Assembly (NCBI GenBank): GCA_965195345.1
Contig: OZ239628.1
Location: forward strand, 384,001-448,000
Direction of reading: 5' to 3'
Source: an uncultured Thiomicrospira sp.
GTDB lineage: Bacteria; Pseudomonadota; Gammaproteobacteria; CAKMZV01
DNA: 64,000 nucleotides
In this document: piece by piece, positions 12,710 to 54,414 of the stretch
Layout of the letters: each line of letters begins with the position of its first letter
Position numbering within the stretch: the stretch's first letter is position 1
Position numbers and translations under genes: made by a program
The notes under the pieces: model-generated
The model's input: the letters and a program-made list of their open reading frames with translations, nothing else
Database searches by the model: none
What the model was told of the DNA's origin: nothing

Positions 12710-13516
12710 ATGACGGTGCAAAAATTTGACATAAAGGTTTTTGAAAAGGGCGTAATGTCGAGACGCGCTGTTGAACCTGTGGCAATTGAAAGCGCAGTAA
12801 GCATCACAGTTTATGAACGAGACGAAGAACATGTTTTGGTTACTACTTTATGCACGCCGTGTGATTTAAAGCAGATGGTTTTGGGTTTTTTGTTTTCGGA
12901 AGGTTTAATCAGCAGACATTCCGATGTTAATATTACTTTTAACGATACCAACCCTTTTCAAGCGCAAGTGAGATTCGTGCAAAAGGTTCATTGGAAGCAA
13001 TCTATACGATCTTTTGTGCAACATGGCGGTTGTGGTTTATGCAGTAAAGCAGTGTTGGAAAAAATTAATAAGCCAGTGCAAGGAATGGCAAAAGAAGCGA
13101 GGCTGCAAGTATTAACTCCAAGTAATATTATTCATCTTTATCAGCAGTTATCCCTCAAGCAACCACTATTCTCTGATACTGGAGGGACACACGCTGCAGC
13201 ACTATTCGATTTTAAGGGTAAGATTCTGGGTGTTTATGAAGATGTGGGTCGACATAATGCAGTTGATAAAGCAATCGGACATGCTTTACAAAATGATTGG
13301 GAAATTCATAATAAAATTTTATGGGTGAGTGGGCGCGCAGGATTTGAATTGGTTCAAAAGGCAGTGAATGCCAATTTTGCTGTGATGTTATCAATTGGAG
13401 CGCCTACGTCGATGGCGGTCGAATTGGCAGCGGGAACGGGATTGGTGTTAATTGGGTTTTTTAAATATGGAGAGGAAGGGCTCTCTGATAGTTCGTATAA
13501 CATTTATAATGAATAA
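12710..13516 (+). CDS. fdhD: Formate dehydrogenase accessory sulfurtransferase FdhD/FdsC
   Basis: GFLFSEG, CGLC, TGGTHAAALF, EDVGRHNAVDK and SGRAGFELVQKA motifs. Confidence 0.95.
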   Translation: MTVQKFDIKVFEKGVMSRRAVEPVAIESAVSITVYERDEEHVLVTTLCTPCDLKQMVLGFLFSEGLISRHSDVNITFNDTNPFQAQVRFVQKVHWKQSIRSFVQHGGCGLCSKAVLEKINKPVQGMAKEARLQVLTPSNIIHLYQQLSLKQPLFSDTGGTHAAALFDFKGKILGVYEDVGRHNAVDKAIGHALQNDWEIHNKILWVSGRAGFELVQKAVNANFAVMLSIGAPTSMAVELAAGTGLVLIGFFKYGEEGLSDSSYNIYNE

Positions 13517-13558
13517 TTATGTAAATTAGAATATTTTTGATTTGTTTTTCAAACTAAA

Positions 13559-13939
13559 ATGAACACTATGAAATTAAGAATTTGGGGGAATAAGATTCGC
13601 TTGCGTCTTAGAACGGATGATTTTGATGCATTGCTCAGTGGTGATGGGGTTGTTGAACATATGCTTGAGATGCCAAGCGAGCAAAGTTTCATGTATCGAT
13701 TGAAGGTAAGCAATGGCGAAAAAAAGGTCGATCCAATTTTTAAAAATGGTGTGCTTGATGTAGTCGTACCGATGAAAGCATTAGAGGCTTTGCTCAATTC
13801 GCCCGAACAAGAAGGACTGCATTATCAATTTGATACAGCAGGTACGCCATTAAAGGTTGCTGTTGAGAAAGATTTTCCGTGTCAACATGACCATGTTGAT
13901 GAACCGAATGATTATTCAACGTGCTTTGACAGATTTTGA
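13559..13939 (+). CDS. Conserved hypothetical protein inside the fdh operon (DUF7009-like)
   Basis: MKLRI.GN.IRLRL N-terminus and L.V.VEKDF.C C-terminal motif, recalled from a DUF family; sits between fdhD and fdsG. Confidence 0.6.
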   Translation: MNTMKLRIWGNKIRLRLRTDDFDALLSGDGVVEHMLEMPSEQSFMYRLKVSNGEKKVDPIFKNGVLDVVVPMKALEALLNSPEQEGLHYQFDTAGTPLKVAVEKDFPCQHDHVDEPNDYSTCFDRF

Positions 13940-13962
13940 AGCCAATAGTTAGAGAGAATGCA

Positions 13963-14403
13963 ATGAGTATTGAAGCTATTATTGATAAATGGATTGACCA
14001 GTCAGGTCCTTTGTTGCCTATTTTGCTTGATGTCAAGAAAGAATATGGCTCTATCAGTGATGAGGCAATCGATGAGATAAGTAAAGGGCTAAATTTAAGC
14101 CGTGCTGAAGTATATGGAGTGGTTAGCTTTTATGAAGATTTTCATCGTGACTCCCTCGTAAATTCTAAGGCAAAGCGCATTATAAAAGTATGCACTGCTG
14201 AAGCTTGTCAAGCTCAGGGTTGTCGTACGCTGGTCAACCAGTTGGAAGAAAAACACAAGCAGAAACTCAATGAGAAAGGAACAGATATCACTATTGAGTC
14301 GGTGTATTGTCTAGGAAACTGTGCGTTAGGTCCGAGTGTGATGTTAGGAGATTGCGTTTTTGGTAGAGCAACTTTGGAGAAAGTAGATAAATGGATAGCG
14401 TAA
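13963..14403 (+). CDS. fdsG: NAD-dependent formate dehydrogenase gamma subunit (NuoE-like)
   Basis: GPLLPIL, LNLSRAEVYGVVSFY, VCTAEAC and YCLGNCALGP [2Fe-2S] ligands; ATG 13963 preferred over TTG 13936. Confidence 0.93.
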   Translation: MSIEAIIDKWIDQSGPLLPILLDVKKEYGSISDEAIDEISKGLNLSRAEVYGVVSFYEDFHRDSLVNSKAKRIIKVCTAEACQAQGCRTLVNQLEEKHKQKLNEKGTDITIESVYCLGNCALGPSVMLGDCVFGRATLEKVDKWIA

Positions 14404-15917
14404 AATTTTATATTCCATTCGACACCAGTGCAGTTTCTGTAGGAGCAAGCGCGGTGGCTGAGGCTGTGATGAAGGCTTATCCAAACACAACGATTGTACG
14501 TAATGGATCACATGGTGCTTTATGGCTTGAGCCTTTGGTTGAAGTGGAAAGCAAAGGCGTTCGATATGCTTTTGGCAATTGTTCTGTTGAATGCGTTAGC
14601 ACATTGATTCAAAATGGTGCGATTAATACGCAACATGAAAACTATCTGGGTGAGACAAAATCTCTTGATTTCTTTGCTAGTCAAAAGCGGGTAGTGTTTG
14701 ATAAGTGTGGCTGGATTGATCCTTTTGATTTCTCTCAGTGGTCAGCATATGGAGGAGGCGTTGGTTTAAGACATGCTGTTCAAATATCTGGTCAAGAAAT
14801 TATAGACAATGTTAAGTCTTCAGGACTGCGCGGACGTGGAGGCGCAGCGTTTCCAACGGGAATAAAATGGCAGACGGTACATGATGCGCAAGCAGATCAG
14901 AAATACATAGTGTGCAATGCCGATGAAGGTGATAGCGGAACGTATGCTGATCGAATGCTGATGGAAGGGGATCCACTAACACTCATAGAAGGGATGGCAA
15001 TTGCTGGCGTTGCAGTCAATGCAACAGTAGGATTTATTTACATTCGCTCAGAATATCCAATTGCCATTAAGCACTTTAAGAAAGCCATTCTGTTGGCTTA
15101 TGAGAACAACATGTTAGGGCGCGATATATTCGGTAGCGGCAAGCACTTTGATATGGAAATTCGCGAGGGGGCGGGTGCGTATATATGCGGTGAAGAAACA
15201 TCGTTATTGGAAAGCCTTGAAGGAAAACAAGGCACGATTCGTTTTAAACCACCATTGCCAGCTTTGGAAGGGATGCTGGGTAAACCAACGGTTGTTAATA
15301 ATGTCATTAGCCTTGCGAGTTGTCCGTATATATTGTCTAATCCGGGAAATTTTGAAAAGCTAGGTTGCAATCGTTCAACAGGAACGTTGACTGTACAACT
15401 ATGTGGGAATGTTAGACATGGTGGTTTGTATGAAATGGAATTTGGTTTTAATTTGAAAGATATGGTTGAGCAGATAGGTGGCGGTACGCTAACTGGCAAA
15501 CCAGTGCGTACTATGCAAGTAGGAGGCCCGCTTGGTCCGTATTTGCATCCAGACGAATTTGATACTCCGTGTGATTATGAAGAATATGCAGCGAAGAAGT
15601 TGATGATTGGACATGGAGGAGTAGTTGTTTTTGATGATGATGTTGATATGAGTGAACAAGCTAAGTTTTCTATGCAATTTTGTGCGGATGAGTCTTGTGG
15701 AAAATGCACTCCTTGTCGCATTGGGTCAACGCGTGGGGTAGAATTGATTGCTGCTATTCAAAAAGGTGAGAAAAGACAGCATTACAAATTAGTTTTAGAA
15801 GAATTGTGCGATACGATGGAAAAAACATCTTTATGCGCAATGGGGGGGCTGACACCGATGCCCGTTATGTCAGCAGTAAATAAATTCCCTACTGACTTTG
15901 GGTTTGAAAAAGATTAG
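14391..15917 (+). CDS. fdsB: NAD-dependent formate dehydrogenase beta subunit (NuoF-like)
   Basis: RNGSHG..WLEPLVEV N-terminus, SGLRGRGGAAFPTGIKW, NADEGD, GAYICGEET and ESCGKCTPCRIG motifs. Confidence 0.95.
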   Translation: MDSVKFYIPFDTSAVSVGASAVAEAVMKAYPNTTIVRNGSHGALWLEPLVEVESKGVRYAFGNCSVECVSTLIQNGAINTQHENYLGETKSLDFFASQKRVVFDKCGWIDPFDFSQWSAYGGGVGLRHAVQISGQEIIDNVKSSGLRGRGGAAFPTGIKWQTVHDAQADQKYIVCNADEGDSGTYADRMLMEGDPLTLIEGMAIAGVAVNATVGFIYIRSEYPIAIKHFKKAILLAYENNMLGRDIFGSGKHFDMEIREGAGAYICGEETSLLESLEGKQGTIRFKPPLPALEGMLGKPTVVNNVISLASCPYILSNPGNFEKLGCNRSTGTLTVQLCGNVRHGGLYEMEFGFNLKDMVEQIGGGTLTGKPVRTMQVGGPLGPYLHPDEFDTPCDYEEYAAKKLMIGHGGVVVFDDDVDMSEQAKFSMQFCADESCGKCTPCRIGSTRGVELIAAIQKGEKRQHYKLVLEELCDTMEKTSLCAMGGLTPMPVMSAVNKFPTDFGFEKD

Positions 15918-15934
15918 GAAATCTGGAGATCGCC

Positions 15935-18718
15935 ATGAAATATATTGACTTGACAGACTACGGAACGCCTGTTTCAAAAAATACTACTATGGTCAATTTG
16001 ACTATAGATGGCGTTAATGTTAGGGTTGCAGAAGGGACGAGTTTGATGCGTGCTGCAATCGAAGGGGGAATTCATATCCCTAAACTGTGCGCAACGGATT
16101 CACTTAATCCTTTTGGCTCATGTCGTTTGTGTATGGTTGAAATAGTCGGTCGTCCTAATCCAGTTGCTTCGTGTCATACGAATGTGACTGAAGGGCTAAT
16201 TATTCGCACACAAAACGAACAATTGGCGAAGTGGCGTAAGAATCTTATGGAGTTGTACATATCTGATCATCCTTTAGATTGTTTGACTTGTGCCGCTAAT
16301 GGCGATTGTGAGCTACAGGATATGGCAGGAGTGGTTGGCTTGCGTGATGTGCGTTATCCTAAAGGAGGCATAACGCATTTGGAGCAAGAAAAAGACGAAT
16401 CCAATCCTTATTTCACATTTGACCCAAGCAAGTGTATTTTGTGCTCTCGTTGTGTGCGTGCTTGCGATGAGGTGCAAGGAACATTAGCGTTAACCATAGA
16501 AAAGCGAGGATTTAACTCAAAAGTTTCAGTGGCAAATGTTGACTTTATGGCTTCTGATTGCGTTTCGTGTGGCGCATGTGTTCAAGCCTGTCCAACAGCT
16601 ACGTTGATGGAAAAAAGTGTTATTGCATTCGGTTTGGGTGAGAACAAAACAATTACCACTTGTGCTTATTGCGGAGTAGGTTGTAATTTTGTTGCACACA
16701 CTCAAGGCGAACAAGTGACGCACATGGTGCCTTATAAAGACGGGAAAGCGAACCATGGTCACTCTTGTGTTAAAGGGCGATTTGCTTGGCAATATGCGAC
16801 CCATGAAGAACGAATAACAAAACCTTTAGTCCGTGAGAGTATTCATGATGAATGGAGAGAGGTTAGTTGGGATGAAGCTTTTGAGTTTGCTGCAACAAGG
16901 TTGAAGAATATCCAAGAAAAATACGGTGTTGATTCGATTGGAGGTATTACTTCGTCGAGGTGTACTAATGAGGAAACCTATTTGGTGCAAAAACTCGTAC
17001 GAGCTACTTTTAAAAATAACAATGTTGATACTTGTGCTCGAGTTTGTCATTCACCCACAGGATATGGACTAAAACGTACTTTTGGAGCATCGGCAGGCAC
17101 TCAAAATTTTGACTCAGTACAGCATACTGATTTGATCTTTGTAGTTGGAGCCAACCCTACGGATGCGCATCCAGTGTTTGGATCTCGTATGAAACGTCGT
17201 TTGCGTGAAGGGGCGCAGTTAATAGTGCTTGATCCACGGCAAATAGATTTGGTCAAAAGTCCTCATATTAAAGCGAATGTGCACTTGCCCCTAACTCCAG
17301 GAACAAATGTTGCTGTTCTTAATGCTATCGCTCACACGATCGTTAAGGAAGGACTGCAAGATCAAGATTTTATAAGCAAACGCTGTGATTTAGACACCTT
17401 TAAAGATTGGCTAACCTTTATTCAACATGAAAAAAATGCACCTGAGACGATCGCCTCTCAATCAGGACTGGACGTAAATGACATTAAAAAAGCAGCAAGG
17501 CTGTATGCTAAAGCACCGAATGCTGCGATTTACTATGGGTTGGGAGTTACGGAGCATTCGCAAGGGTCTTCAACAGTAATGGCAATAGCTAATTTGGCAA
17601 TGTTGACAGGGAATATTGGTCGAGAAGGTGTTGGTGTTAACCCATTACGTGGACAAAATAATGTACAGGGCGCATGTGATATGGGTTCTTTCCCTCATGA
17701 GTTGCCCGGTTATCGTCACGTTGGTGATCCTAAAGTACGCGAATTATTCGAATCAGAGTGGGATGTTGAATTGTCCGCTGATCCTGGATTGCGCATTCCT
17801 AATATGTTTGATGCCGCCACTGCTGGTTGGTACAAAGGCATGTATATTCAGGGTGAAGACTTAGTGCAATCTGATCCGAACTCTCATCATGTGATAAAGG
17901 CCTTTGAAAACATGGAGTGCGTTATAGTCCATGATCTGTTTTTGAATGAAACGGCTAAATACGCACATGTTTTTTTTCCAGGAGCTTCCTTTTTGGAAAA
18001 AGATGGAACATTTACTAACGCAGAAAGGCGTGTTAATCGTGTTCGTAAAGTCATGTCACCGTTAGGTGGTATGTCAGAGTGGGAAGTAATCTGTGCTTTA
18101 GCAAAAGCAATGGGGTACTCAATGGAGTACAACCATCCTAGTGAAATCATGGATGAAATTGCGCGAACTACTCCAGGATTTGCTAATGTAAGCTATGACT
18201 TGCTTGATGAGAAAGGAAGTATTCAATGGCCTTGCAATGACGCATCACCAGAAGGGACGCCTATTATGCACCAAGAATATTTTGTGCTTGGTAAAGGACA
18301 TTTTATCAATACTGAATACGTGCCCACAAGTGAAAAAACCAATCGTAAATATCCCTTATTACTTACTACTGGACGAGTATTGCATCACTATAACGTAGGC
18401 ACACAAACGAGGCGCACGGCCAATTCAAAGTGGCAACCAGAAGACATATTAGAAATTCATCCAAGCGATGCGGAGTCAAGAGGTATTGTTGACGATATGC
18501 GCGTTGCAGTCACTTCACGCTCAGGTGAAACTTATTTGCACGTGCGCGTTTCAGAAAAAATGGAACCAGGTGTTGTTTATACAACTTTTCATTTTCCAGA
18601 AAGCAATACCAATGTTATTACTACGGATAATTCAGATTGGGCAACAAACTGTCCCGAGTACAAGGTGACGGCTGTGGAAGTTCGTCCTCATGATCAGGCT
18701 ATTCCTAAAGTTGGGTGA
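15935..18718 (+). CDS. fdsA: NAD-dependent formate dehydrogenase alpha subunit (Mo-bis-PGD, Cys ligand)
   Basis: N-terminal Fe-S motifs, TCAYCGVGC, CVKGRF, active site DTCARVCHSP, PLRGQNNVQGACD and PEYKVTAV. Confidence 0.96.
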   Translation: MKYIDLTDYGTPVSKNTTMVNLTIDGVNVRVAEGTSLMRAAIEGGIHIPKLCATDSLNPFGSCRLCMVEIVGRPNPVASCHTNVTEGLIIRTQNEQLAKWRKNLMELYISDHPLDCLTCAANGDCELQDMAGVVGLRDVRYPKGGITHLEQEKDESNPYFTFDPSKCILCSRCVRACDEVQGTLALTIEKRGFNSKVSVANVDFMASDCVSCGACVQACPTATLMEKSVIAFGLGENKTITTCAYCGVGCNFVAHTQGEQVTHMVPYKDGKANHGHSCVKGRFAWQYATHEERITKPLVRESIHDEWREVSWDEAFEFAATRLKNIQEKYGVDSIGGITSSRCTNEETYLVQKLVRATFKNNNVDTCARVCHSPTGYGLKRTFGASAGTQNFDSVQHTDLIFVVGANPTDAHPVFGSRMKRRLREGAQLIVLDPRQIDLVKSPHIKANVHLPLTPGTNVAVLNAIAHTIVKEGLQDQDFISKRCDLDTFKDWLTFIQHEKNAPETIASQSGLDVNDIKKAARLYAKAPNAAIYYGLGVTEHSQGSSTVMAIANLAMLTGNIGREGVGVNPLRGQNNVQGACDMGSFPHELPGYRHVGDPKVRELFESEWDVELSADPGLRIPNMFDAATAGWYKGMYIQGEDLVQSDPNSHHVIKAFENMECVIVHDLFLNETAKYAHVFFPGASFLEKDGTFTNAERRVNRVRKVMSPLGGMSEWEVICALAKAMGYSMEYNHPSEIMDEIARTTPGFANVSYDLLDEKGSIQWPCNDASPEGTPIMHQEYFVLGKGHFINTEYVPTSEKTNRKYPLLLTTGRVLHHYNVGTQTRRTANSKWQPEDILEIHPSDAESRGIVDDMRVAVTSRSGETYLHVRVSEKMEPGVVYTTFHFPESNTNVITTDNSDWATNCPEYKVTAVEVRPHDQAIPKVG

Positions 18719-19103: not shown

Positions 19104-20333
19104 ATGTTTTTTTCATGTAATAAGATAAAGAAAGATGTTTTTAAATCTTCAAAGATGCTTTTTTTGGGAGCATACTTTGTTATTTTATTGTCATCTGCTT
19201 TCATGACATTACCCGCGAATGCCGACGAACACGAACAGGCTACAGAAACCTCAACAAATACTATTCAGCCAAGAGAACAAGCAAAAAAAGAAAATCCAGA
19301 GGTGCTGCCCTCTCACTTGCCGATTAAGAATATTCAATTCACTCCCTCTAAAAAAGAAAAAATTTTCTTTCATCATAACGATGAAAGAGACGAAGAACTT
19401 AGGGTGATCATATTGCAACAATTATTTGATCCTCTATTATGGGAAAAGGCAAAAGTGAGCGCCATACAGTCAAAAATTGAATCTGCTTATATTGTTTATG
19501 ATGATTCTAAAGGGGAGCGACAACATAGCCCTGATTTTTACGATAGCTTAGAAAGCGCTCTGCTTAAAAAGATGGTTCAAACTACAGATATATCATTCAA
19601 AGGATGTGCTTACTCTTGTGTGCAGAAAAAAACAATCACCATAACACAAAGTCGCTTGATTATTAGTACGAAGAACTTAAATAGACGCATTCGAAAAGAA
19701 ATTGAATCGGGTGAAGTACAGGGCATTTTAAAATGGAGTTTCTTCTCAAATGCAGCTGGCAGTAAAGGAGGAATATCTGTTAGCCTACTCAATGCAAACA
19801 ATAAGATTGTTTGGACCGATACGATTTTTGCAGACATTAATGAGTTAATAGTAGCTGACGAAAACAAAGCGTCAGAAGGTGAAAGCCAATTAGGTATAGC
19901 ATTGATGAGTCAGAGAATTCAGTTTGAAGAAGGAACGGATCCAGTAACAGAATCAAACCAAAATGTTGTGGTGAGTTTTGGTTATAGAGAACGCATTACA
20001 CCGTTCACCAGACTTAAATATTATTTAGGGGGGCGTGTGCTGTATAGCACTGGTTTAGCAAATAACTATTTTGCCATTTCAGCGAGTGCTCGTATAGGTT
20101 ATACCATTTTTAATCTGCCCAAACGCGACGTTGATTTTTTCATAGGATTCGAGCAAGACCTCATATTAGTTCAAGGATTTAATGGCACACTTGCTGTAGA
20201 TTGGCAGCTGAGTGATGCTTTTTATTTGCGAGGGATTTATGAGCTGCCGTTGGATTCAGAACGCACAGATAATTTTGGTCAAGAGTATACCCTTAGTCCG
20301 GGTTTTTTGTTAGAAATGGGGGTTAAACTGTGA
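19104..20333 (+). CDS. Hypothetical exported protein: periplasmic alpha/beta (CsgG/FlgO-like?) domain plus C-terminal outer-membrane beta-barrel
   Basis: Signal peptide ending LPANA; about 8 amphipathic beta strands in the last ~150 aa, ending FLLEMGVKL; central SLESALL...GILKW..ISVSLLNANNKIVWTDT segment. Confidence 0.5.
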   Translation: MFFSCNKIKKDVFKSSKMLFLGAYFVILLSSAFMTLPANADEHEQATETSTNTIQPREQAKKENPEVLPSHLPIKNIQFTPSKKEKIFFHHNDERDEELRVIILQQLFDPLLWEKAKVSAIQSKIESAYIVYDDSKGERQHSPDFYDSLESALLKKMVQTTDISFKGCAYSCVQKKTITITQSRLIISTKNLNRRIRKEIESGEVQGILKWSFFSNAAGSKGGISVSLLNANNKIVWTDTIFADINELIVADENKASEGESQLGIALMSQRIQFEEGTDPVTESNQNVVVSFGYRERITPFTRLKYYLGGRVLYSTGLANNYFAISASARIGYTIFNLPKRDVDFFIGFEQDLILVQGFNGTLAVDWQLSDAFYLRGIYELPLDSERTDNFGQEYTLSPGFLLEMGVKL

Positions 20334-20899
20334 ACGGGCTTAAAATATTATTTATCATCTCTGCAGTGATTTTTTTGTCAGGCTGCAGTTCAACAGAAGA
20401 GTTACAAACTTTGGATGCGGGCAGAGCAATCAAAGAGGGAGACGGTAAGGAAAATCTACCCTCGTCATTAATTGTTGAAAATGGCGTTATTTTTTTTAGA
20501 AAAGAAAGTGGTGGTGAAAAAATCGAATTTATTTTTAATATTGGTGAAAATGAAAACATCGAGTACGAGATAGAATTTGCTCCCCCTGAGAAAGAAAAGA
20601 GCGATCATCTTCCTGCCCAAAATAGTACCTCTGTAAGTGGCGAGTCTAAAAAGCTTGCGGATCGATTATTCCTATCTGCACAAGGCTATTTTTTAGAAGG
20701 AAATTATCGTCGAGCTTTGGTTGAGGTTAATCGAGCGCTACGAGAAGACATGAAGTCTGGACTTCTTTGGGCTTTAAAGGGTTCCATACACTATAAGCTT
20801 AATGAATTTGGATTGGCACGCAATGCATGGAGTAAGTCGCAGGAATTAGACAAAGATATTACAGGCGTTCGAGAAATGTTATTAAAAATAGGGACGTAA
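20330..20899 (+). CDS. TPR-repeat lipoprotein
   Basis: Lipobox FLSGC; TPR-like helices AQGYFLEGNYRRAL..AL and WALKGSIHYKLNEFGLARNAWSKS; GTGA overlap with the upstream gene. Confidence 0.8.
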   Translation: MNGLKILFIISAVIFLSGCSSTEELQTLDAGRAIKEGDGKENLPSSLIVENGVIFFRKESGGEKIEFIFNIGENENIEYEIEFAPPEKEKSDHLPAQNSTSVSGESKKLADRLFLSAQGYFLEGNYRRALVEVNRALREDMKSGLLWALKGSIHYKLNEFGLARNAWSKSQELDKDITGVREMLLKIGT

Positions 20900-20927
20900 T
20901 TAAGAATTAATTTGTGAGTATGAAACC

Positions 20928-23111
20928 ATGAAAAGTTTTTTTGTAAAAATCATAGCAAATGTAGTCACTATTTTTGTGATTGCCGTTACGGGGGTACATG
21001 CACAAGAGATTGAACGAGCAGGGCAAGTAGATGCCATAAAGCAGAGTGTTTTTGAGCGGGATTTGGAAAATAATATTAGCAGTGCGCTCAGGTTACAGCT
21101 CGGTAGCATTCCTTTTTTGGTTCAAGTGAGTGCTGAATTGCGCTCGATAAAAACATACGCGATTGATACTGTCTCCATATATCAGCCGAGTTCTGTTGAA
21201 GCGCCTTCTCTTGAAAGTAAAAAAACAATTGTGAGACAACAGCTGCAAGAAGTTGATGCTGGTAGAACGAATCAAAACATTGATCCTGCTGACGATGGAG
21301 GCCAAGGTATTTCAAATGCTTTGCCAGGAGCCCCAATTCTTTTGACGAATAGTGACGATGGATCTGAGCAAAATCAGCCGAGAAGAAGTCAACCTATAAC
21401 TGAGGTCATTCAATCAACTGAGCCTATCAGTGAAGCGTCAGAAAGTCAACCGAGAAGTGTTGGTCGATTTGTGAATACCACCCGTGAAACGTTCATTGAA
21501 AGTCATGTGTTAATTGACAGAATTGACGTCAAGCTATGGCTTCCATCTGATTTGGAACCTAGTAGAATTCGTTTTCTCAAACACTTGGTTTCTGAAAAAG
21601 CAAGAATTAATTTAATAAGGGGCGATCAGTTTACAACTATTTTAACAAATTTTCCAGAAACTGAAAAAAAGGAAGATACCCTAACAACTAACCAGAATAG
21701 CTCAACTGAGTCTATAAATATTGATAATATTGGTCGGAGAATAGGATTAGATAGAGTAGTAAGTGAGCTGAGTCAAAACAATTGGTTACCTTGGGCGCTT
21801 GCTGGGTTACTCTTTTTATGGTTATTGTTTTTGCTTTTCCGCAAAAAAAGAACCGCGCATCACCAACCGCCGATCGCAACGTACCATCACAGCGATGTTC
21901 CATTTAACCCTCCATCATTAACGAACATCAACCCTCCTGAATCCGCATCTCTTGAAGATAAACAACAAGATCACGAACATAAACAGCGATTGAAAATTCT
22001 TAATGAAGACATAGTGAGTAATATCATGCTGCATGAAGGGTTGTTGCTGAATGCGCTAAATAACCCTAACCTTGCAATAGAAAAAGTACGATTTACGGCT
22101 TGGTTGATTAAATTGCTTGGCACAGCCGTGGTTGCAAAGTATGCATATGATCAGCTTAATGAAAGCGAATTAAAAAACGCGAATGCGTTGCAAGAAGTTA
22201 TTGAACAAAGCACATTGATAGAACAATGTGAATGGGCAGCAAAGGTGCATAGAAGCTTACGCGATAGTGAGTCGCTTTCTAATAAAAATATTTCCCAACC
22301 TTTTGATTTCTTAAATGAAATGAATGATCAGAAATTGAAACGCTTGCTAAATGAAGAGCATGTGCAGGCAAAAGCACTGATACTTTCTCAAATTGATCAA
22401 CGACGCTCGGCAGCAATCCTTGCTATGTTTTCTGCTGAGGAACAAGCAAGTATTGCCATAGCAATGGGGAAACTTACGACACTTCCAGTATCTTCATTTC
22501 ATGACATAGCTAATCAATTAGCTCGTAAGGCTCAAAGCATTCCAGAAGTAAATGAGCTTAACATTGATGGAACGGAAGCGCTAGTGCAGATGATAGAGTC
22601 CATGGATTTGGCGAATGGAACAGCGTTCCTGAATGAATTGAGAAAACAAAATCCTGATCAATATTATCGCATTAAGAAATTGTATATGGGCTTTGAGGAT
22701 ATTCCAAAAATTCCGAAGGCTATATTGAAAAACTTTTTGCGTGAAATTGAACGAGAAGAGTTGGTTACGGCACTGTACGATGAGGAAGATGCTTTTAGAG
22801 AACAGTTACTCAGTGCGCTTCCTGATCGAGCAAAGGCATTAGTTCAGCAGTTATTGAGTGAAATACAAACACCAACTGCAGCAAAGATTATGCAATCGAA
22901 AAAAATGATTAGCACCAAAGCAAGGCAGTTATTGCGAGCTAAAGTATTTGAATTACCAACAGATGAAGAGACCTTCACAGCGTCTTCAACATCTGAAGCA
23001 GGGCTACAAGAAGAGTCTATAGTTCCCTCTATAGAGGTTGAGTCAAGGCTTTCGGAAGAGTCAAACACAGGGTCAAGAAGCTCCTCAAACCTTAATAACT
23101 TAGAAAAATGA
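20928..23111 (+). CDS. FliF(RBM3/S-ring)-TM-FliG single-chain fusion; putative rotor of a non-flagellar motor
   Basis: Signal peptide (VHA|QE); FliF RBM3-like motifs (ERDLENNISSAL..LG...VQVSAEL, LPGA, IDRIDV, RGDQFTTILTNF); one TM plus RKKR; FliG-M/C motifs (PFDFL, EEHVQ, YMGFEDI, LREIE..LVTAL, DRA). Confidence 0.85.
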   Translation: MKSFFVKIIANVVTIFVIAVTGVHAQEIERAGQVDAIKQSVFERDLENNISSALRLQLGSIPFLVQVSAELRSIKTYAIDTVSIYQPSSVEAPSLESKKTIVRQQLQEVDAGRTNQNIDPADDGGQGISNALPGAPILLTNSDDGSEQNQPRRSQPITEVIQSTEPISEASESQPRSVGRFVNTTRETFIESHVLIDRIDVKLWLPSDLEPSRIRFLKHLVSEKARINLIRGDQFTTILTNFPETEKKEDTLTTNQNSSTESINIDNIGRRIGLDRVVSELSQNNWLPWALAGLLFLWLLFLLFRKKRTAHHQPPIATYHHSDVPFNPPSLTNINPPESASLEDKQQDHEHKQRLKILNEDIVSNIMLHEGLLLNALNNPNLAIEKVRFTAWLIKLLGTAVVAKYAYDQLNESELKNANALQEVIEQSTLIEQCEWAAKVHRSLRDSESLSNKNISQPFDFLNEMNDQKLKRLLNEEHVQAKALILSQIDQRRSAAILAMFSAEEQASIAIAMGKLTTLPVSSFHDIANQLARKAQSIPEVNELNIDGTEALVQMIESMDLANGTAFLNELRKQNPDQYYRIKKLYMGFEDIPKIPKAILKNFLREIEREELVTALYDEEDAFREQLLSALPDRAKALVQQLLSEIQTPTAAKIMQSKKMISTKARQLLRAKVFELPTDEETFTASSTSEAGLQEESIVPSIEVESRLSEESNTGSRSSSNLNNLEK

Positions 23112-23887
23112 AAACACTAATTAGTCGATTAATAGCAATGGCTTTGGTAGGGTACGCAGCTTACAGCATTATTGTTTTTCCAGAGCATACAGCTCTTTTT
23201 ACGCATGCAGAATCAGTGATTTTGGTATTGGGTGGTACATTCGCAGCAAGCCTGATGAGCTTTAATATTGAGACAATATTGAAGGCATTTTTAAGCTTTT
23301 TTAAAGGTCTTATTTATGCCTCAGACAATCAGTCAAAGATCAGAGAAATAAAAGAAATCATTACAATTGCAGAACGCGTTAATGAAACAAACGGATTCGG
23401 ATGTATTGATGATATGTTAGAACAAAAAAAAAAATATTCAGATTTTGTGCGATTAGGATTAGAGCTGATTTCTGCGGGTTACAGCGAAGTTGGACTTAGA
23501 GTACAGCTAACAAATTTTGCAGATGAACTAGATGAAGAAGAGCGTTTGATGGAAGACGTTTGGTTTCAATTTGCAAACTATGCTCCAGCTTTGGGAATGG
23601 TTGGAACAGTTATAGGGTTGATTCTTATGTTGGATAATCTTGATGTCAATAGTTTAAATATTGGAGCTGGACTTTCATTGGCACTGTTGACTACTTTGTA
23701 CGGTGTTTGTATAGCGAACTTTATTTTCAAACCAACTGCTCGGTTTTTAGCTGAAGAACGATTGAAAAAATCCAGAAATTTAGCACTTTATTTAGAAGCA
23801 ATGCTAATGGTACAAAAAAAAACAAGTCCAATTTTAATGAAAGATTACTTAAATAGTAGCTTGCCTATTAAATTGCAATTAAAGTAA
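23108..23887 (+). CDS. motA: MotA/PomA-family stator A subunit
   Basis: S.ILVLGGT in TM2, APALGMVGTVIGLI in TM3, ALLTTLYG..ANFIFKP in TM4; 259 aa; ATGA overlap with the FliF-FliG gene. Confidence 0.92.
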   Translation: MKTLISRLIAMALVGYAAYSIIVFPEHTALFTHAESVILVLGGTFAASLMSFNIETILKAFLSFFKGLIYASDNQSKIREIKEIITIAERVNETNGFGCIDDMLEQKKKYSDFVRLGLELISAGYSEVGLRVQLTNFADELDEEERLMEDVWFQFANYAPALGMVGTVIGLILMLDNLDVNSLNIGAGLSLALLTTLYGVCIANFIFKPTARFLAEERLKKSRNLALYLEAMLMVQKKTSPILMKDYLNSSLPIKLQLK

Positions 23888-23953
23888 TGTTAAGAATAAG
23901 CCTAAAATCAACTTCTGTGAAGATTGATTTTTCGTAACTAAGGATACGGCTTC

Positions 23954-24673
23954 ATGAATTCAGTTTTACGCAAAAAAAAGTCTATCAATAGAACAGATAA
24001 CCTTTGGTTAATAACCTATTCAGATGTTGTGACGTTACTGTTGGTTTTTTTTGTGCTAATCATCGCTTTTTCAGTCGTTGATCAATCTAAATTTGAAGTG
24101 ATTGCTGAAGCCATAAAAGCAAATAAGTTCGATGGGAAAAAGACGCTTCCTTTTCAAAAATTTGAACAAGAATTGCAAAAAATTATCGAAAAAAATGATT
24201 TAGAAGAAAAGGTTGTTGTAAATAAACAACCTCTAGGCGTTAGTATTGAACTTTCTGGTGAAAGTCTATTCCAATCTGGAGAAGCTATTTTGAATGCAAC
24301 GGGTAGCCTCGCAATAAAACAATTAGCGAAGGCTATAAAAAACATTGAATATCCTAACTATCAAGTAGAGATTGAAGGACATACCGATGATGTGCCAATA
24401 AATAATGAGAAATACTCTTCCAATTGGGAATTGTCTGTCTTTCGCGCCATTGATGTGCTTAAGCTGTTAACAGAGCAGGGAATACCCAATGATAAATTCA
24501 AAATAGCTGGTTACGGAGAAACAAAACCTAAATATTCAAATGAAACGGCTGATGGTTTACCTAATGTCGCTAACAGAGCTAAAAACAGACGAATAGAGAT
24601 TAATGTTTTTCGTAAGGAGCGGCGTTATAGGGAATCGTCAACAAAAGAGGAAAATCAAAACACAGAAAAGTAG
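23954..24673 (+). CDS. motB: MotB/PomB-family stator B subunit with OmpA-like peptidoglycan-binding domain
   Basis: WLITYSD(24)VVTLLLVFFVL TM with the catalytic Asp; IEGHTDDVPI, SNWELS..RA, GYGETKP and KNRRIEI motifs. Confidence 0.94.
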   Translation: MNSVLRKKKSINRTDNLWLITYSDVVTLLLVFFVLIIAFSVVDQSKFEVIAEAIKANKFDGKKTLPFQKFEQELQKIIEKNDLEEKVVVNKQPLGVSIELSGESLFQSGEAILNATGSLAIKQLAKAIKNIEYPNYQVEIEGHTDDVPINNEKYSSNWELSVFRAIDVLKLLTEQGIPNDKFKIAGYGETKPKYSNETADGLPNVANRAKNRRIEINVFRKERRYRESSTKEENQNTEK

Positions 24674-24733
24674 TTTTTATAATATTTTTTGATTTTTGGC
24701 ACGCATTGAGACTATTTTTAAGCAGGTTCTAAA

Positions 24734-26149
24734 ATGCAAAGAAAGGGTATGGGATTCATATTTAACCGAATAAATGCTCTTACTTTTTCTAGTATGAGAA
24801 AAAAAAATCCAATTCTACTGGTCTGCTCTTTTGTGGTGTTTCTCTCCTTCCCTATAAAAGCAACGAGCAATTTTCAACCTTCCCAATTGAGAACTTTGTT
24901 TAATCCTGCCGCTGAGAATCCATCAGCAGCAGTTATCTACAGTTACTTATTCAATGATAGTGATATCGGGTTGCAAGTATATGGAGAAGCGCAAGGACTA
25001 GTAGAAAACACCATAGATGAGAATCAACTTCTAATGGAGTTGAACGGTATTATAAATTCTAATATTGGCGTTAATTCTATTAATCAATTTGAAACACAAA
25101 TAAATAATTTCCTTAGAACTACTCAACCTATTCTTCGTGGTAATGCAAACGCAATCCTCGCTTTTCGAAAAGGATCAAATACAAAAAAAACTGCTGTCAC
25201 TCTTAGTTATGATGATAGTCTCTTGTACTATCAACAATTGCGATTTATCAATGGCGTTGATGTTGATGTGCCGGCAGTAACAGCCTTAATTGCGGGCAAC
25301 ACGACCATTGATTCTGCAGATTTTTTGAACGCTATTGATACTGATGTGGGCATTAATAATACATTGGCACGTATCAGAACGTTCAGCTTAGGATATAGCC
25401 ATCGCTACACGATTAATCCAATAATTAAATTCAGCTATGGTGTGCGTTTTAAAGCACAATCGGCATCTATTTCTTCAAACTTGGTGGACTTTCGAACAGT
25501 TATATCCACGACCAATGAGGTAGTTCAGTTAGAAAGTGCTGATATATTTGGAAATTTTGACACAGCAAACGAGCATATATATGGTAATGTTGATTTAGCT
25601 CTAACATTGCATGGAAGACAATATTTTATAAGCATATACTCACTGGATACCATACCGCAAAGGTTAGCATTACCAAGTTTTTCCGATACATGCGAGTCTG
25701 TAAATGATTGTGCTATATCAGCACTGTATCCAAATGGGAATGAGTTTTTTTATATCGACCCTAAAGTGCGTTTTGAATACAGCTATCTGTCACGACGCAA
25801 GCAATTTCGCTTTAGCTTTTTGTACGATATACTCCCTTGGAGAGATGGAAGTACTGCCGAGCGCCAACTGCTAACTATCCATACTGAAATTGCGACGACT
25901 AAGCGAAACACTAATAGACCCTATTGGGGACATCCCTCCCCTTCGATAAGGCTATCTGCTTTTATAGATGATGCTTCTTCTTTCGTGAATGATACTCTTA
26001 TTCAGACAGGGTTCAGTGCATGGTTTATAGATTTAAACTTCACATTTGGCTTTAGAAAACCAGGTATATTAGTCTCTAGACCATCTAGAATTGAGAACAG
26101 CAGGACACTTCTACGCGGCATTCAGTTGGGAGTTAACGTTGATTTTTAA
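24734..26149 (+). CDS. Predicted outer-membrane beta-barrel protein (TraF_2/FadL-like?)
   Basis: Signal peptide, NPA motif near the mature N-terminus, many alternating beta strands, C-terminal beta-signal QLGVNVDF. Confidence 0.6.
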   Translation: MQRKGMGFIFNRINALTFSSMRKKNPILLVCSFVVFLSFPIKATSNFQPSQLRTLFNPAAENPSAAVIYSYLFNDSDIGLQVYGEAQGLVENTIDENQLLMELNGIINSNIGVNSINQFETQINNFLRTTQPILRGNANAILAFRKGSNTKKTAVTLSYDDSLLYYQQLRFINGVDVDVPAVTALIAGNTTIDSADFLNAIDTDVGINNTLARIRTFSLGYSHRYTINPIIKFSYGVRFKAQSASISSNLVDFRTVISTTNEVVQLESADIFGNFDTANEHIYGNVDLALTLHGRQYFISIYSLDTIPQRLALPSFSDTCESVNDCAISALYPNGNEFFYIDPKVRFEYSYLSRRKQFRFSFLYDILPWRDGSTAERQLLTIHTEIATTKRNTNRPYWGHPSPSIRLSAFIDDASSFVNDTLIQTGFSAWFIDLNFTFGFRKPGILVSRPSRIENSRTLLRGIQLGVNVDF

Positions 26150-29443: not shown

Positions 29444-30568
29444 TTATATGGTCATCGGCATGATGACGTGCTGCAAGTGTACATCATCATCTTTTTCTTC
29501 AATAAGAACGCTGGCAGTGGGCGTGGATATTTTTATATTGATGATGGGTTGACTTAATGTGCTTATCGTTTGCTGTAGGTAGCCTTCATTAAAGGCAATT
29601 TCAAGATGTTCACCATCATAAGAAGCAGACATGACAACTTCGGACTTTTCCTGCTCGGCATTTAAGCAAGTTATCGTAGCAGTGTCGTCTTCTTTGGCTA
29701 TTAAGCGCACCTGCCTCGTAGAATCTTTGTTAATAAGCGTCGCCTGTTTCAATGTTTTTGAGAAGCTGTCGCAATCAGCACTGAAGGTGTAATCATTATT
29801 TTGAGGGATAACACCGGCGTAGGAAGGAAAAGAACCAACGATTAATTTGCTGGCAAACGTTAGGTTTTCTGTGCGCTTTAGCTGAAATGAAATGAAATTG
29901 TCACTGATTGAAAGAGTCAGGTCTCCTTTTTCATCTTCAAGCAATCTTTTAATTTCAGTGACTGCTTTGAGCGGAATAATAATACTACAATCGCTATCAA
30001 TTTCTTTTTCTAAAGAAGATACCGCACTTGCTAAACGATGACCATCGGTGGCGACTACTCGGATTTGAGTTCCTTGGGCTTCAAGTAACATGCCTCGCAA
30101 AGGCGCTCTGATATCCTTAGTTGAAATGGCAAAAGATACTTTATTGATAAGTGTTTTTAGTGTTTTCTTAGAAACAGTTATTGATTGATCAAAGTTGGTA
30201 AGGTCTAGCTGCGGAAATCCTTCGGAAGGCAAGGTTGAAAGATTGTAGCGTGCGTAATCAGTATGAATGACCGCTTGTGTATCAGAAAATTCAATGGCGA
30301 TGGTTTCTGCTGTGGTGCTTGACACGATGTCGAGAAGTTTTTGAGCTCCAAGTGTCGTATCAAATTTACCTCCAGCGATCTCTCCTTCAGGCATTGGTAG
30401 TTGAGCAACCATTTGCAATTCAGTATCTGTAGTGGTGAGGACCATTCCAGATTCATCAACTTGCAGTTTTACGTTGCCAAGGATCGGCAAAATTTTCACA
30501 CGATCAATAACACTTGCTATATTTTGTAGCACTTGATAGAGTGGCTTTCTCTCAAATAATAGTTTCAT
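29444..30568 (-). CDS. dnaN: DNA polymerase III beta sliding clamp
   Basis: LPILGNV, TDTE, VATDGHRLA, IAFN..YL and VIMPM motifs; directly downstream of dnaA. Confidence 0.96.
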   Translation of the reverse strand: MKLLFERKPLYQVLQNIASVIDRVKILPILGNVKLQVDESGMVLTTTDTELQMVAQLPMPEGEIAGGKFDTTLGAQKLLDIVSSTTAETIAIEFSDTQAVIHTDYARYNLSTLPSEGFPQLDLTNFDQSITVSKKTLKTLINKVSFAISTKDIRAPLRGMLLEAQGTQIRVVATDGHRLASAVSSLEKEIDSDCSIIIPLKAVTEIKRLLEDEKGDLTLSISDNFISFQLKRTENLTFASKLIVGSFPSYAGVIPQNNDYTFSADCDSFSKTLKQATLINKDSTRQVRLIAKEDDTATITCLNAEQEKSEVVMSASYDGEHLEIAFNEGYLQQTISTLSQPIINIKISTPTASVLIEEKDDDVHLQHVIMPMTI

Positions 30569-30576
30569 GGGTTAGT

Positions 30577-31902
30577 CTAGTTGGACAAGGTTATAAAAAG
30601 ATTGTTAAAGTCGTTCTCAAAATTGGTATTTTCTTTTCGCAATCGTTCAACATTACGACAAGCATGCAAAACAGTGGTATGGTCTCGAGCGAATGCATCT
30701 CCAATTTCTGACAAACTTAGATTGGTGAGTTGTTTTGCCATAGCCATAGCCATATGGCGTGCACGAACAACAGGTTGACGGCGGACTTTACCAAGTAAGT
30801 CGGTTGAGCGTAAACGGAAGTAGGAGGCAACGGTTTTAATGATTTGGTCCACTGATACAGCGCGCGAATGTGAAGCAAAAACATTATCCAATGCTTCATG
30901 AGTGCTAAGCAGTGTCATAGGTTTACCACTGAAGTCGTGGTAGGCTTTGAGTGTCGCAAGTGCGCTCTGAAGTTCGCGAACGTTCGAACGAATTTTTTGG
31001 GCGACTAAGAAAGCAATTTCTTCTGGTAGGTCAAGGGAAACTTCGCGAGCTTTTGCCTTAAGTATGGCTACACGGAGTTCGAGCTCTGGTGGTTTAAGCT
31101 CAATAGCTAATCCAGCTCCAAAGCGCGAGCGCAACCGATCACTAAATCCACTCAGATCTTTCGGATAGCGGTCACAAGTAAAGACTACTTGTTTATGACC
31201 TTCAAGCATAAGATTGACTATTTGAAAAAGCTCTTCTTGTGTGCTGGCTTTTTCTGCGAAAAAATGCACATCATCAATCAAAAGAACGTCAAAGCTACGA
31301 TAAAACCTTTTGAACTGTGGCATTGTCTTCTCGTTTAGAGAAGCGATGAAGTTAGAAACAAAACGAGGAGCGTGCTGATAGAAAACTTTTGTGTTTGTAT
31401 GGCGAATCATATGATTGCCAATTGAATAAAGTATGTGCGTTTTTCCTAGTCCAGAGCGACCATATATAAAGAAAGGGTTGTAAATGCTCGCTTGAGTGTT
31501 TTCGGCAATTTGTTTGGCAATAGATGACACCATAGTATTGGACTCGCCAGTAACAAAATTGCTAAATGAAAATTGTGGTTGCAATCCTGCTTCTTTAATG
31601 CGCTCATTGACATCGGCATGATTAGCGCGCGCTTGTAGTCGAGAAATTGAGTTTTCTTCAATATCTTCTTCGGCTTCTAGGTGTATGTGCAAAGTTTGGG
31701 GGCTTGCAGAGTCAATCGTGCTTTTTAGTATTTCCCAATGAGCATTGGCATGTAAGCAATCTGCGAAATGTTCGTTTGGAGCTATGATGTGAAGTTTATT
31801 TCCATTAAGCTTTGCTCTTAAGGGAGCGACCCACCGCTCAAAGTCATGTTGCTCTAACGTATTCTCAAGTAGCCTAACACATCTGTTCCAGATGTCACTC
31901 AT
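30577..31902 (-). CDS. dnaA: Chromosomal replication initiator DnaA
   Basis: YNPFFIYG.SGLGKTH Walker A, LLIDD Walker B, RLRSRF, SNVREL and RDHTTVLHA motifs. Confidence 0.98.
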   Translation of the reverse strand: MSDIWNRCVRLLENTLEQHDFERWVAPLRAKLNGNKLHIIAPNEHFADCLHANAHWEILKSTIDSASPQTLHIHLEAEEDIEENSISRLQARANHADVNERIKEAGLQPQFSFSNFVTGESNTMVSSIAKQIAENTQASIYNPFFIYGRSGLGKTHILYSIGNHMIRHTNTKVFYQHAPRFVSNFIASLNEKTMPQFKRFYRSFDVLLIDDVHFFAEKASTQEELFQIVNLMLEGHKQVVFTCDRYPKDLSGFSDRLRSRFGAGLAIELKPPELELRVAILKAKAREVSLDLPEEIAFLVAQKIRSNVRELQSALATLKAYHDFSGKPMTLLSTHEALDNVFASHSRAVSVDQIIKTVASYFRLRSTDLLGKVRRQPVVRARHMAMAMAKQLTNLSLSEIGDAFARDHTTVLHACRNVERLRKENTNFENDFNNLFITLSN

Positions 31903-51302: not shown

Positions 51303-54170
<2,868 letters not shown>

Positions 54171-54296
54171 GTAACACCTAAATCACTTTAGTGATTTGAG
54201 GCTACATAGTTCACTAATCTCAAAAGATTAATTTTTAACGTGGACTTGGCGTTTACCGAATAATGAGGGCTTGCATTGCAAGTGCTCGTACCAGTT

Positions 54297-54414
54297 TGCC
54301 TGGTGACCATAGCAAGATCGAACCACCTGATCCCATACCGAACTCAGAAGTTAAAGGTCTTAGCGCCGATGGTAGTGTGGGAGTTCCCATGTGAGAGTAG
54401 GACATTGTCAGGCA
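54297..54414 (+). rRNA. rrf: 5S ribosomal RNA
   Basis: TGCCTGGTGACCATAGC..CCACCTGATCCCAT.CCGAACTCAGAAG..GCCGATGGTAGT..GAGAGTAGG..CAGGCA. Confidence 0.97.

Follow-up and report, generated by a model that had tools for sequence, protein, structure and literature searches.

Positions 20928-23111 on the forward strand of a 64,000-nucleotide stretch of DNA (the window) from an uncultured Thiomicrospira sp. contain a single open frame of 727 codons with no interruption, as a preliminary description of the stretch had stated. The encoded protein, here called FliFG (P0001 in the comparisons; G000 is the genome of the window), combines in one chain parts related to FliF and FliG, which are textbook examples of separate proteins. 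Its features are listed below with amino acid (aa) positions and the basis of each assignment.

20928-23111, forward strand: FliFG (P0001), the 727-aa fusion protein (open reading frame (ORF), Pfam, family profile)
20928-21002, forward strand: signal peptide, aa 1-25 (hydropathy)
21039-21662, forward strand: FliF RBM3/beta-collar-like periplasmic domain, aa 38-245 (family profile)
21783-21839, forward strand: single transmembrane (TM) helix, aa 286-304, equivalent to FliF TM2 (hydropathy, family profile)
21978-22277, forward strand: FliF C-terminal FliG-binding helix and FliG_N equivalent, aa ~351-450 (profile alignment)
22290-22955, forward strand: FliG middle and C-terminal domains, aa 455-676, with the torque helix at ~630-650 (Pfam, PDB)

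Hydropathy agrees with the preliminary description on both the signal peptide and the TM helix; the hydrophobic stretch of the former ends in VHA/QE, and cleavage would be expected after VHA. The periplasmic domain is made up of aa 38-75, a variable Ser/Gln/Thr-rich loop (76-195) containing an LPG motif, and aa 196-245 with an RGD motif. The linker at 305-350 is rich in Pro and His (7 and 5 of 46 residues) and the tail at 677-727 in Ser and Glu (12 and 10 of 51), in keeping with the Pro/His linker and the acidic, Ser-rich tail described earlier.

The FliG-M/C assignment of the preliminary description is borne out by Pfam, which places FliG_M at 468-539 (E 6.2e-12, 46 bits against a curated cut-off of 25) and FliG_C at 570-671 (E 9.8e-17, 61.6 bits against 23.3); FliG structures in the PDB match the same domains with E values down to 5.4e-13. 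The NCBIfam equivalog model for FliG, TIGR00207, scores 75.1 bits on P0001, far under its cut-off of 226.7, so the protein is not an ordinary FliG. The sole Pfam FliG_N match of P0001 (21.7 bits, below the cut-off) falls on the middle domain at 479-543, and no direct FliG_N match was obtained at aa ~351-450. The proposal of FliG-N-like helices there is thus supported by the family profile, which aligns to FliG_N, but not by a direct Pfam match in P0001. YscJ_FliF (RBM1-RBM2, PF01514) had no match in P0001 even at E ≤ 10.

An exhaustive search with P0001 gave 2227 proteins at E ≤ 0.001, of which 289 reached E ≤ 1e-10 and 31 reached E ≤ 1e-30. The family has at least 125 long members; its alignment and profile, A2, comprises 125 proteins of at least 530 aa, with P0004, P0155 and P0157 left out. 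These long members have a median length of 622 aa; an N-terminal hydrophobic stretch is present in 116 of them and one internal TM helix, at a median position of 223, in 124. A per-member Pfam scan covering 75 of the 125 found FliG_M and FliG_C in all 75, FliG_N in 56 and YscJ_FliF_C in 18 (best E 7.2e-8), along with weak DUF4381 matches in two members and a BatA match in one. The source names of relatives, where given, are either 'hypothetical protein' or 'flagellar motor switch protein FliG', as was foreseen in the remark that automated pipelines would call only FliG, and such names can make genomes of non-flagellates seem to hold flagellar remnants.

It is the family profile that connects the N-terminal half of the protein to FliF. 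The top PDB match of A2 is the engineered Vibrio FliF-FliG fusion 8z4d (E 1.6e-54), with profile positions 26-605 aligning to chain residues 269-937 in one colinear stretch that takes in the VPG and RGD motifs, the TM helix, the FliF C-terminal helix and FliG_N. The profile also matches residues 222-558 of Salmonella FliF (E 2.2e-14), residues 12-327 of the full-length FliG 3hjl and the FliG_N of 5tdy_B. In FliF, the alignment begins at residue 222 (Salmonella) or 269 (Vibrio). The colinear alignments with 8z4d and Salmonella FliF suggest that FliFG corresponds to FliF from RBM3 onward joined to a complete FliG, with RBM1 and RBM2 absent.

A hidden Markov model (HMM) of the periplasmic part points the same way. 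At 36 fliG loci from flagellated Pseudomonadota, with 271 ORFs in all, it matched 35 ORFs; each of these runs in from the upstream edge of its fliG locus, and the three that were checked all carry YscJ_FliF and YscJ_FliF_C. Aligned with hhalign to a profile of 35 FliF sequences, the periplasmic part gave Prob 97.7 and E 2.1e-12 over 144 columns, against E 0.53 for a reversed control. The best conserved periplasmic positions among the 125 members are LPG at 132-134 (L in 115, P in 120, G in 116) and RGD at 231-233 (R in 103, G in 116, D in 119), and they align with the VPG and RGD motifs of FliF; both had been singled out in the preliminary description, the first as LPGA (132-135). Compared with the orthologue in genome G004, P0001 is identical at 16/38 aligned positions in aa 38-75, 23/95 in the loop and 33/50 in aa 196-245. 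Over the whole protein, the folded domains are 42-66% identical to this orthologue, while the loops and tail are 8-24% identical or not alignable.

Look-alikes in the Atlas, sought with the family member P0052 and not with P0001, form clusters of 500-840 aa with FliG_C and FliG_M, and in three of the clusters YscJ_FliF_C is found on 22-55% of members. The commonest phyla of the clusters are Balneolota, Bdellovibrionota, Pseudomonadota, Bacteroidota, Elusimicrobiota and Myxococcota. The family is widespread, not a one-off, and spans six phyla or more.

For the M+C region of FliG, a quick tree was built from 122 rows, consisting of 60 of 123 fused proteins (the first 30 and 30 taken at random) and all available canonical FliG (36) and short matches (26). 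All fused rows and 13 fragments lie on one side and all canonical rows on the other. Support by the Shimodaira-Hasegawa-like approximate likelihood ratio test (SH-aLRT) is weak for this split (76) and strong for the canonical clade (99). Since the fused rows stand apart from canonical FliG, the gene in the window would not be a recent fusion of a gammaproteobacterial fliF and fliG. The tree also holds a clade of short FliG-like proteins of ~305-312 aa (P0041, P0057, P0076, P0132, P0140 and P0143; SH-aLRT 97), which sits apart from both canonical Pseudomonadota FliG and the fused family; these proteins outscored ordinary FliG against P0001.

An assembly or frame artefact joining two genes would explain the fusion trivially; nothing was found in its favour, and its probability is practically nil. 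G000 is a single contig of 1.92 Mb and 99.7% complete, another contig on record encodes a 727-aa protein 98% identical to FliFG, and orthologues of the same layout (670-774 aa) occur in four other genomes. One contig from run X1 spans 20511-24700 with zero differences, and contigs from a second sample tile 20860-22480 with zero differences or indels; the latter cover the FliF-FliG junction, which is therefore real. These contigs, the second record and the orthologues together exclude the chimera against which the preliminary description had cautioned. A separate X1 contig of low depth (2.9) places 7018 other letters between 20327 and 20935, with just 20 letters on its shorter side, while the main contig (depth 31.8) is colinear; the low-depth contig is probably from another organism or a chance match.

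Stator and envelope genes around FliFG

FliFG is the third gene of a six-gene row at 19104-26149 (OMP409, TPR lipoprotein, FliFG, MotA, MotB and a 471-aa protein). Two 4-nt overlaps within the row suggest translational coupling. A promoter and terminator scan of the locus scored no better than shuffled sequence. The other five genes are as follows.

19104-20333, forward strand: OMP409, a 409-aa secreted protein; its stop overlaps the next start by 4 nt
20330-20899, forward strand: TPR lipoprotein, 189 aa; LPAM_1 lipobox at 5-20 and TPR_2 at 146-176 (Pfam)
23108-23887, forward strand: MotA/PomA-type stator A subunit, 259 aa; shares its first 4 nt with the end of FliFG
23954-24673, forward strand: MotB-type stator B subunit, 239 aa; plug, channel Asp D24 and OmpA-like peptidoglycan-binding domain
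24734-26149, forward strand: OMP471, a 471-aa secreted protein ending in Phe; 34% identical orthologue at the same place in G004

The two stator genes appear to be of the flagellar kind. MotA has four TM helices, matches Pfam MotA_ExbB (E 2.4e-17) and aligns from end to end with Vibrio PomA 8brd (E 1.2e-24). Its best NCBIfam models are PomA (3.3e-33), then MotP and MotA, against 1.9e-3 for ExbB and 6.7e-3 for TolQ. Both channel prolines and the channel threonines of MotA are kept in 18/18 cassette homologues, and the Asp of the MotB TY[SA]D motif in 17/17. MotB matches Pfam MotB_plug (2.3e-15) and OmpA (3.4e-19), and NCBIfam MotD/MotB models with E down to 1.4e-48. By these comparisons, the stator resembles flagellar PomA/MotP/MotA much more than ExbB/TolQ. 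Its best stator score, 115.1 bits for PomA against a cut-off of 341, is below threshold, as is its score for every curated stator model.

In OMP409, a periplasmic domain carrying a conserved Cys pair is followed by a C-terminal half that, by eye, looks like an outer-membrane beta-barrel. The protein matched no Pfam or NCBIfam model, FlgO and FlgT included. In other cassettes the same place is held by c4, a 354-aa protein, and among ten c4 proteins Pfam gave weak matches to FlgO in seven (best E 0.0041) and to FlgT_M in three, all under the cut-offs; NCBIfam gave nothing useful for c4. An earlier, smaller hhalign comparison of OMP409 with c4 was not significant (E 0.15). When OMP409 and its G004 orthologue were aligned to the ten c4 proteins, the result was Prob 81.5 and E 1.1e-5 over 122 columns with the Cys pair aligned, which identifies OMP409, at the level of sequence profiles, as a distant homologue of c4. 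OMP471 may be an outer-membrane protein as well. It had no Pfam or NCBIfam match, showed no relation to c4, c13 or c14, and was not found in cassettes other than that of G004; its membership in the system is therefore tentative.

Other genes of the window were noted in passing. By eye, 12710-18718 (forward strand), upstream of the row, looks like a formate dehydrogenase set with an FdhD-like protein, NuoE/NuoF-like proteins and a 927-aa molybdopterin subunit, and 29444-31902 (reverse strand) looks like dnaN and dnaA, in which case the operon would sit near the replication origin. Genes for 23S and 5S ribosomal RNA (rRNA) lie at 51303-54413 (forward strand). The ~2 kb upstream of the 23S gene are not rRNA, the window as a whole yielded no 16S rRNA, and the rRNA operon may be split.

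Carrier genomes and flagellar genes

The cassette is conserved beyond the window. All six genes occur in the same order in G004, while G033 has the lipoprotein, FliFG, MotA and MotB. A metagenome scan contributed 19 loci, mostly from one marine clade and therefore not independent, and cassette counts were taken over 23 loci in all. Among these, the lipoprotein is present directly upstream of FliFG in 19, MotA in 18, MotB in 17 and c4 in 14, and several of the misses fall at contig ends. The TPR lipoprotein is thus the most constant neighbour of FliFG; its PDB matches are to generic TPR proteins only. A homologue of it likewise lies before FliFG in G467, G523 and G686. G467 has the same five genes in a different order and G686 has them in the usual order, so that the lipoprotein, FliFG, MotA and MotB are found together in G004, G033, the marine metagenome clade, G467 and G686. 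With regard to frequency, the family was found in 7/401 genomes of a class sample and in 4/5 genomes of the small order to which the window's genome belongs. In a phylum sample of 401 genomes, the whole profile matched in the window's genome only and FliG matched in 296/401.

The whole of G000 was searched for flagellar and chemotaxis genes, each search giving positives in control genomes. YscJ_FliF was absent at E ≤ 1, as were FHIPEP (FlhA/SctV), FliP (SctR), FliMN_C (SctQ), flagellin and CheW, and the only FliG_C in the genome is that of the present gene. Without flagellar genes in G000, FliFG is not a flagellar rotor. The claim of a natural FliF-FliG protein stands as to the order of parts and the colinearity with an engineered fusion, and needs amending in that the FliF portion is limited to the end of FliF and that G000 lacks a flagellum altogether. 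FHIPEP was also not found in seven other carriers (G001, G002, G004, G033, G523, G686 and G757), making eight of nine, and is present in G467; the nine carriers belong to six taxonomic families and are not nine independent cases.

Several other arrangements were seen around family members. G001 (locus L024) and G002 (L023, 7992-11700, forward strand), both of the same genus as the window's genome, have a FliFG-like gene of 771-774 aa that is 27-30% identical and is followed by a KAP-family P-loop NTPase. In L061 (2053-7827, forward strand), and at the same place in L082 (G757), a TPR lipoprotein, a 430-aa protein consisting of the FliF-like periplasmic part alone, a 789-aa FliFG and a Sel1-repeat protein follow one another, and no MotAB adjoins the FliFG pair in either locus. 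In G033 (L025, 10218-13295, forward strand), genes for MoxR (AAA_3), DUF58, DUF4381 and a VWA protein come right after MotB in an arrangement resembling Bat/MoxR-VWA systems, which was seen in one lineage. G000 itself encodes, outside the window, a more diverged paralogue of 642 aa (L017, 5916-7844, reverse strand; G000:C1 ~1257915-1259843) with a signal peptide, a periplasmic part unmatched by the family HMM, a TM helix, a long acidic linker and FliG_M only (E 1.4e-22). Adjoining it is a 492-aa Sel1-repeat protein with a weak MotX match of 4.7e-7 (L017, 7863-9341, reverse strand), which is 26% identical to the Sel1 proteins after the FliFG pair in L061 and L082.

A probable motor-like function and its rivals

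On balance, the cassette probably encodes a flagellum-independent, motor-like rotor-stator machine of the cell envelope that is derived from flagellar parts. In such a machine, the products of the six-gene operon at 19104-26149 would work together without a flagellum. The signal peptide would direct the export of FliFG, placing the RBM3/collar-like domain in the periplasm and the FliG part in the cytoplasm, with one helix through the inner membrane between them. RBM3 is the domain of FliF that builds the S-ring, and by analogy many copies of FliFG may form an S-ring-like ring with a built-in FliG ring at a 1:1 ratio. The PomAB-type MotA and MotB, anchored to peptidoglycan, would pass ions and push on the C-terminal domain of FliG. 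With neither FliM/FliN nor chemotaxis genes in G000, the machine would have no switch. On its periplasmic side the ring could act on the TPR lipoprotein and the OMP409/c4 outer-membrane protein, or through them, and candidate outputs are a moving surface or periplasmic component or the energising of an outer-membrane process. The contrast in identity between folded domains and loops suggests constraint and counts in favour of this motor reading. The domain homology, the intact stator residues, the conserved cassette and the lack of flagellar genes are observed and speak for it too; ring formation, contact between stator and rotor, rotation and coupling to the outer membrane are inferred from them.

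The rotor-stator interface gives a mixed picture. In the mapping used here, the classical torque residues of Escherichia coli FliG are K264, R281, D288, D289 and R297. P0001 keeps the equivalent of R281 as R634, the Arg of a KRAA motif in comparison with Thermotoga and Vibrio FliG. Q641 and L642 replace the acidic pair, and Y617 and an Ala elsewhere replace the two other basic positions. Of the 125 members, 108 have R or K at position 634 and 42 have E at 642. In 18/18 cassettes FliFG has R or K at 634 and the MotA acidic site is D or E; the MotA-FliG charge pairs, as given in the available text of PMC12505986, are R90/D288-D289 and E98/R281. The window and G004 lack both the MotA Arg of the cytoplasmic pair and an acid at 641/642 of FliFG, G467 being the exception to this correspondence. 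Such a joint loss fits a retained contact, although as a single event in one lineage it is a hint only. At the FliM-binding EHPQR motif P0001 has EHVQ (477-480); E477 is kept in 115/125 members and 478-480 vary.

A number of observations weigh against a motor. P0001 retains only one of the five torque-helix charges, and the MotA Arg, present in 16/18 cassettes, is missing precisely in the window and G004. G000 has no FliM or FliN to brace a FliG ring. G523 has the lipoprotein and FliFG only, with no adjoining MotAB, and no MotA homologue was found in G001 or G002 with the query used; the presence of FliFG without a stator in these three genomes implies that some members either work stator-free or are decaying. 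Finally, the link of P0001 itself to FliF is transitive. YscJ_FliF_C (PF08345) had no match in P0001 even at E ≤ 10, and the FliF HMM, while matching 35/125 members, misses P0001 and seven of its closest relatives; the connection runs through the matched members P0012 and P0014, to which P0001 aligns over its full length (E 1.7e-48 and 2.2e-44). The RBM3-like region proposed in the preliminary description is accordingly supported by the family profile and by hhalign, while P0001 alone is unmatched by FliF models, and of the models suggested there for checking, FliG_M and FliG_C are found on P0001 whereas YscJ_FliF_C is absent and FliG_N is sub-cut-off and confined to the middle domain.

The main rival of a motor is a static scaffold or sensor, in which a non-rotating FliFG anchors or gates the MotAB-type channel or binds proteins through its FliG/MgtE_N-like domain, for example to report the state of the envelope. 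The loss of four of five torque-helix charges in P0001 would suit such a role, as would the cross-matching of FliG_M to MgtE_N in 54/75 members, the members without an adjacent stator (G001/G002 and G523) and the G000 paralogue with a FliG_M part only. It is nevertheless unlikely, given that the stator retains every residue for ion-driven rotation and is of the torque-generating flagellar type, that 18/18 cassettes conserve both a basic residue at 634 and the acidic site of MotA, and that the LPG and RGD motifs of the ring-building RBM3 are nearly invariant. One might also suppose a decaying flagellar remnant, in which left-over fliF, fliG and motAB were accidentally fused and have no function, and the lack of other flagellar genes in G000 and its relatives and the loss of MotA in some relatives would agree with this. 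The frames, however, are intact across lineages just 24-44% identical, one truncated architecture is common to all 125 long members, the 60 fused rows of the tree lie apart from the 36 canonical rows (SH-aLRT 76/99), some of the cassette partners are non-flagellar genes, and the carrier G467 has flagellar FlhA as well; decay is for these reasons highly improbable.

Two further explanations would place the genes in a known system of another kind. A Zorya-like anti-phage system or other MotAB-based defence module might be suspected from the match of MotB to ZorB models (E 5.6e-23) and the weak match of MotA to ZorA (6.7e-4). The ZorA match covers the shared TM core only, the long tail of ZorA is lacking in the 259-aa MotA, the scores of flagellar stator models are much higher, genes like ZorC/D are absent, and FliFG and its neighbours match no PADLOC model beyond the generic MotAB core, for which reason the cassette is not taken to be Zorya; the chance that it is such a module is very slight. 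A FliF-FliG protein serving a type III secretion system is scarcely credible either. Its precedent is the natural fusion of Chlamydiaceae, which the available text of PMC4768692 proposes to meet the injectisome, but FHIPEP, FliP, FliMN_C and YscJ_FliF are all missing from G000, and the chlamydial protein, as described there, has ~330 aa with RBM2, one more RBM and a FliG_M-like end, against RBM3 and a whole FliG in FliFG.

Beyond the probable motor-like machine lies a bolder proposal, possible but held only tentatively, that the cassette forms a self-contained rotary motor for which a flagellum was never required, in which PomAB-type stators turn a one-polypeptide MS-ring/FliG rotor coupled to outer-membrane partners. 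If so, the flagellar rotor-stator core would exist free-standing in nature and might be an old sister or an early offshoot. It would also be the simplest natural system for the assembly and turning of a FliG ring without FliM/FliN, rod or export gate, and would point to a new kind of envelope work or motility.

Known systems and significance

Engineered FliF-FliG fusions are known and their structures have been solved (8z4d). With the flagellar rotor core, whether FliF plus FliG or the engineered fusions of Salmonella and Vibrio (8z4d/8z4g), FliFG shares the order of parts from RBM3 to the end of FliG and the VPG/LPG and RGD motifs, and it too is adjoined by flagellar-type stator genes. It differs in lacking RBM1 and RBM2, in having a signal peptide in place of the N-terminal TM helix, in being a natural fusion, in the change of most torque-helix charges in P0001, and in belonging to a family apart from canonical FliG. 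Moreover, G000 lacks the export gate, rod, hook, filament, FliM/N and chemotaxis genes; whereas the flagellar MS-ring houses the type III export gate, neither FHIPEP nor FliP is present.

Natural FliF-FliG fusion as such is already in print for Chlamydiaceae (Bergeron 2016, PeerJ, PMC4768692), and this shorter protein is the nearest precedent for FliFG. According to the available text of that paper, both are single-chain FliF-FliG proteins of bacteria that build no flagellum, yet the chlamydial fusion has no SpoIIIAG-like RBM3, has no FliG portion other than its FliG_M-like end, and adjoins FlhA/FliI and the injectisome, in contrast to the 727 aa of FliFG with RBM3, FliG N/M/C and MotAB in a genome without type III genes.

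Similar comparisons can be made for the partners. The MotAB of the window resemble PomAB, MotPS and MotAB in the four-TM A subunit, plug, channel Asp, prolines and OmpA-like anchor, and differ from them in falling under the curated cut-offs, in lacking the MotA charge-pair Arg and in residing in a flagellum-free genome. FlgO and FlgT are outer-membrane proteins of the Vibrio flagellar ring (H-ring). The c4 protein is weakly like them and is encoded beside the lipoprotein, and OMP409 aligns to the same region of c4, but c4 has an extra C-terminal barrel-like half and OMP409 matches neither family. Ion motors of 5:2 stoichiometry outside the flagellum include ExbBD-TonB, TolQR-TolA, AglRQS, GldLM and ZorAB, and like the cassette they involve a MotAB-like ion motor for envelope work other than flagellar rotation. 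To our knowledge, those motors couple through a protein placed within or next to the stator, and neither FliG nor FliF is part of them; the cassette, in contrast, has a flagellar-type rotor protein together with a flagellar-type stator. The available text of PMC12505986 names ExbBD, TolQR and AglRS of these motors and regards flagellar stators as one flagellum-tied group, the 'FIT' clade. No description of the long FliFG family was found in the literature searched or in PMC12505986, which was covered in part and without its supplements.

The cassette joins a stator of flagellar type to a natural FliF(RBM3)-FliG fusion and to outer-membrane partners, and the bacteria that conserve this association are mostly ones in which FlhA was not found. 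If the module turns, it would be a minimal natural rotor with one rotor protein, a fixed 1:1 ratio of FliF to FliG and no switch or export apparatus. Ring assembly, symmetry and torque could then be tested in a far simpler system, with a bearing on how the flagellar motor originated and how its parts have been reused.

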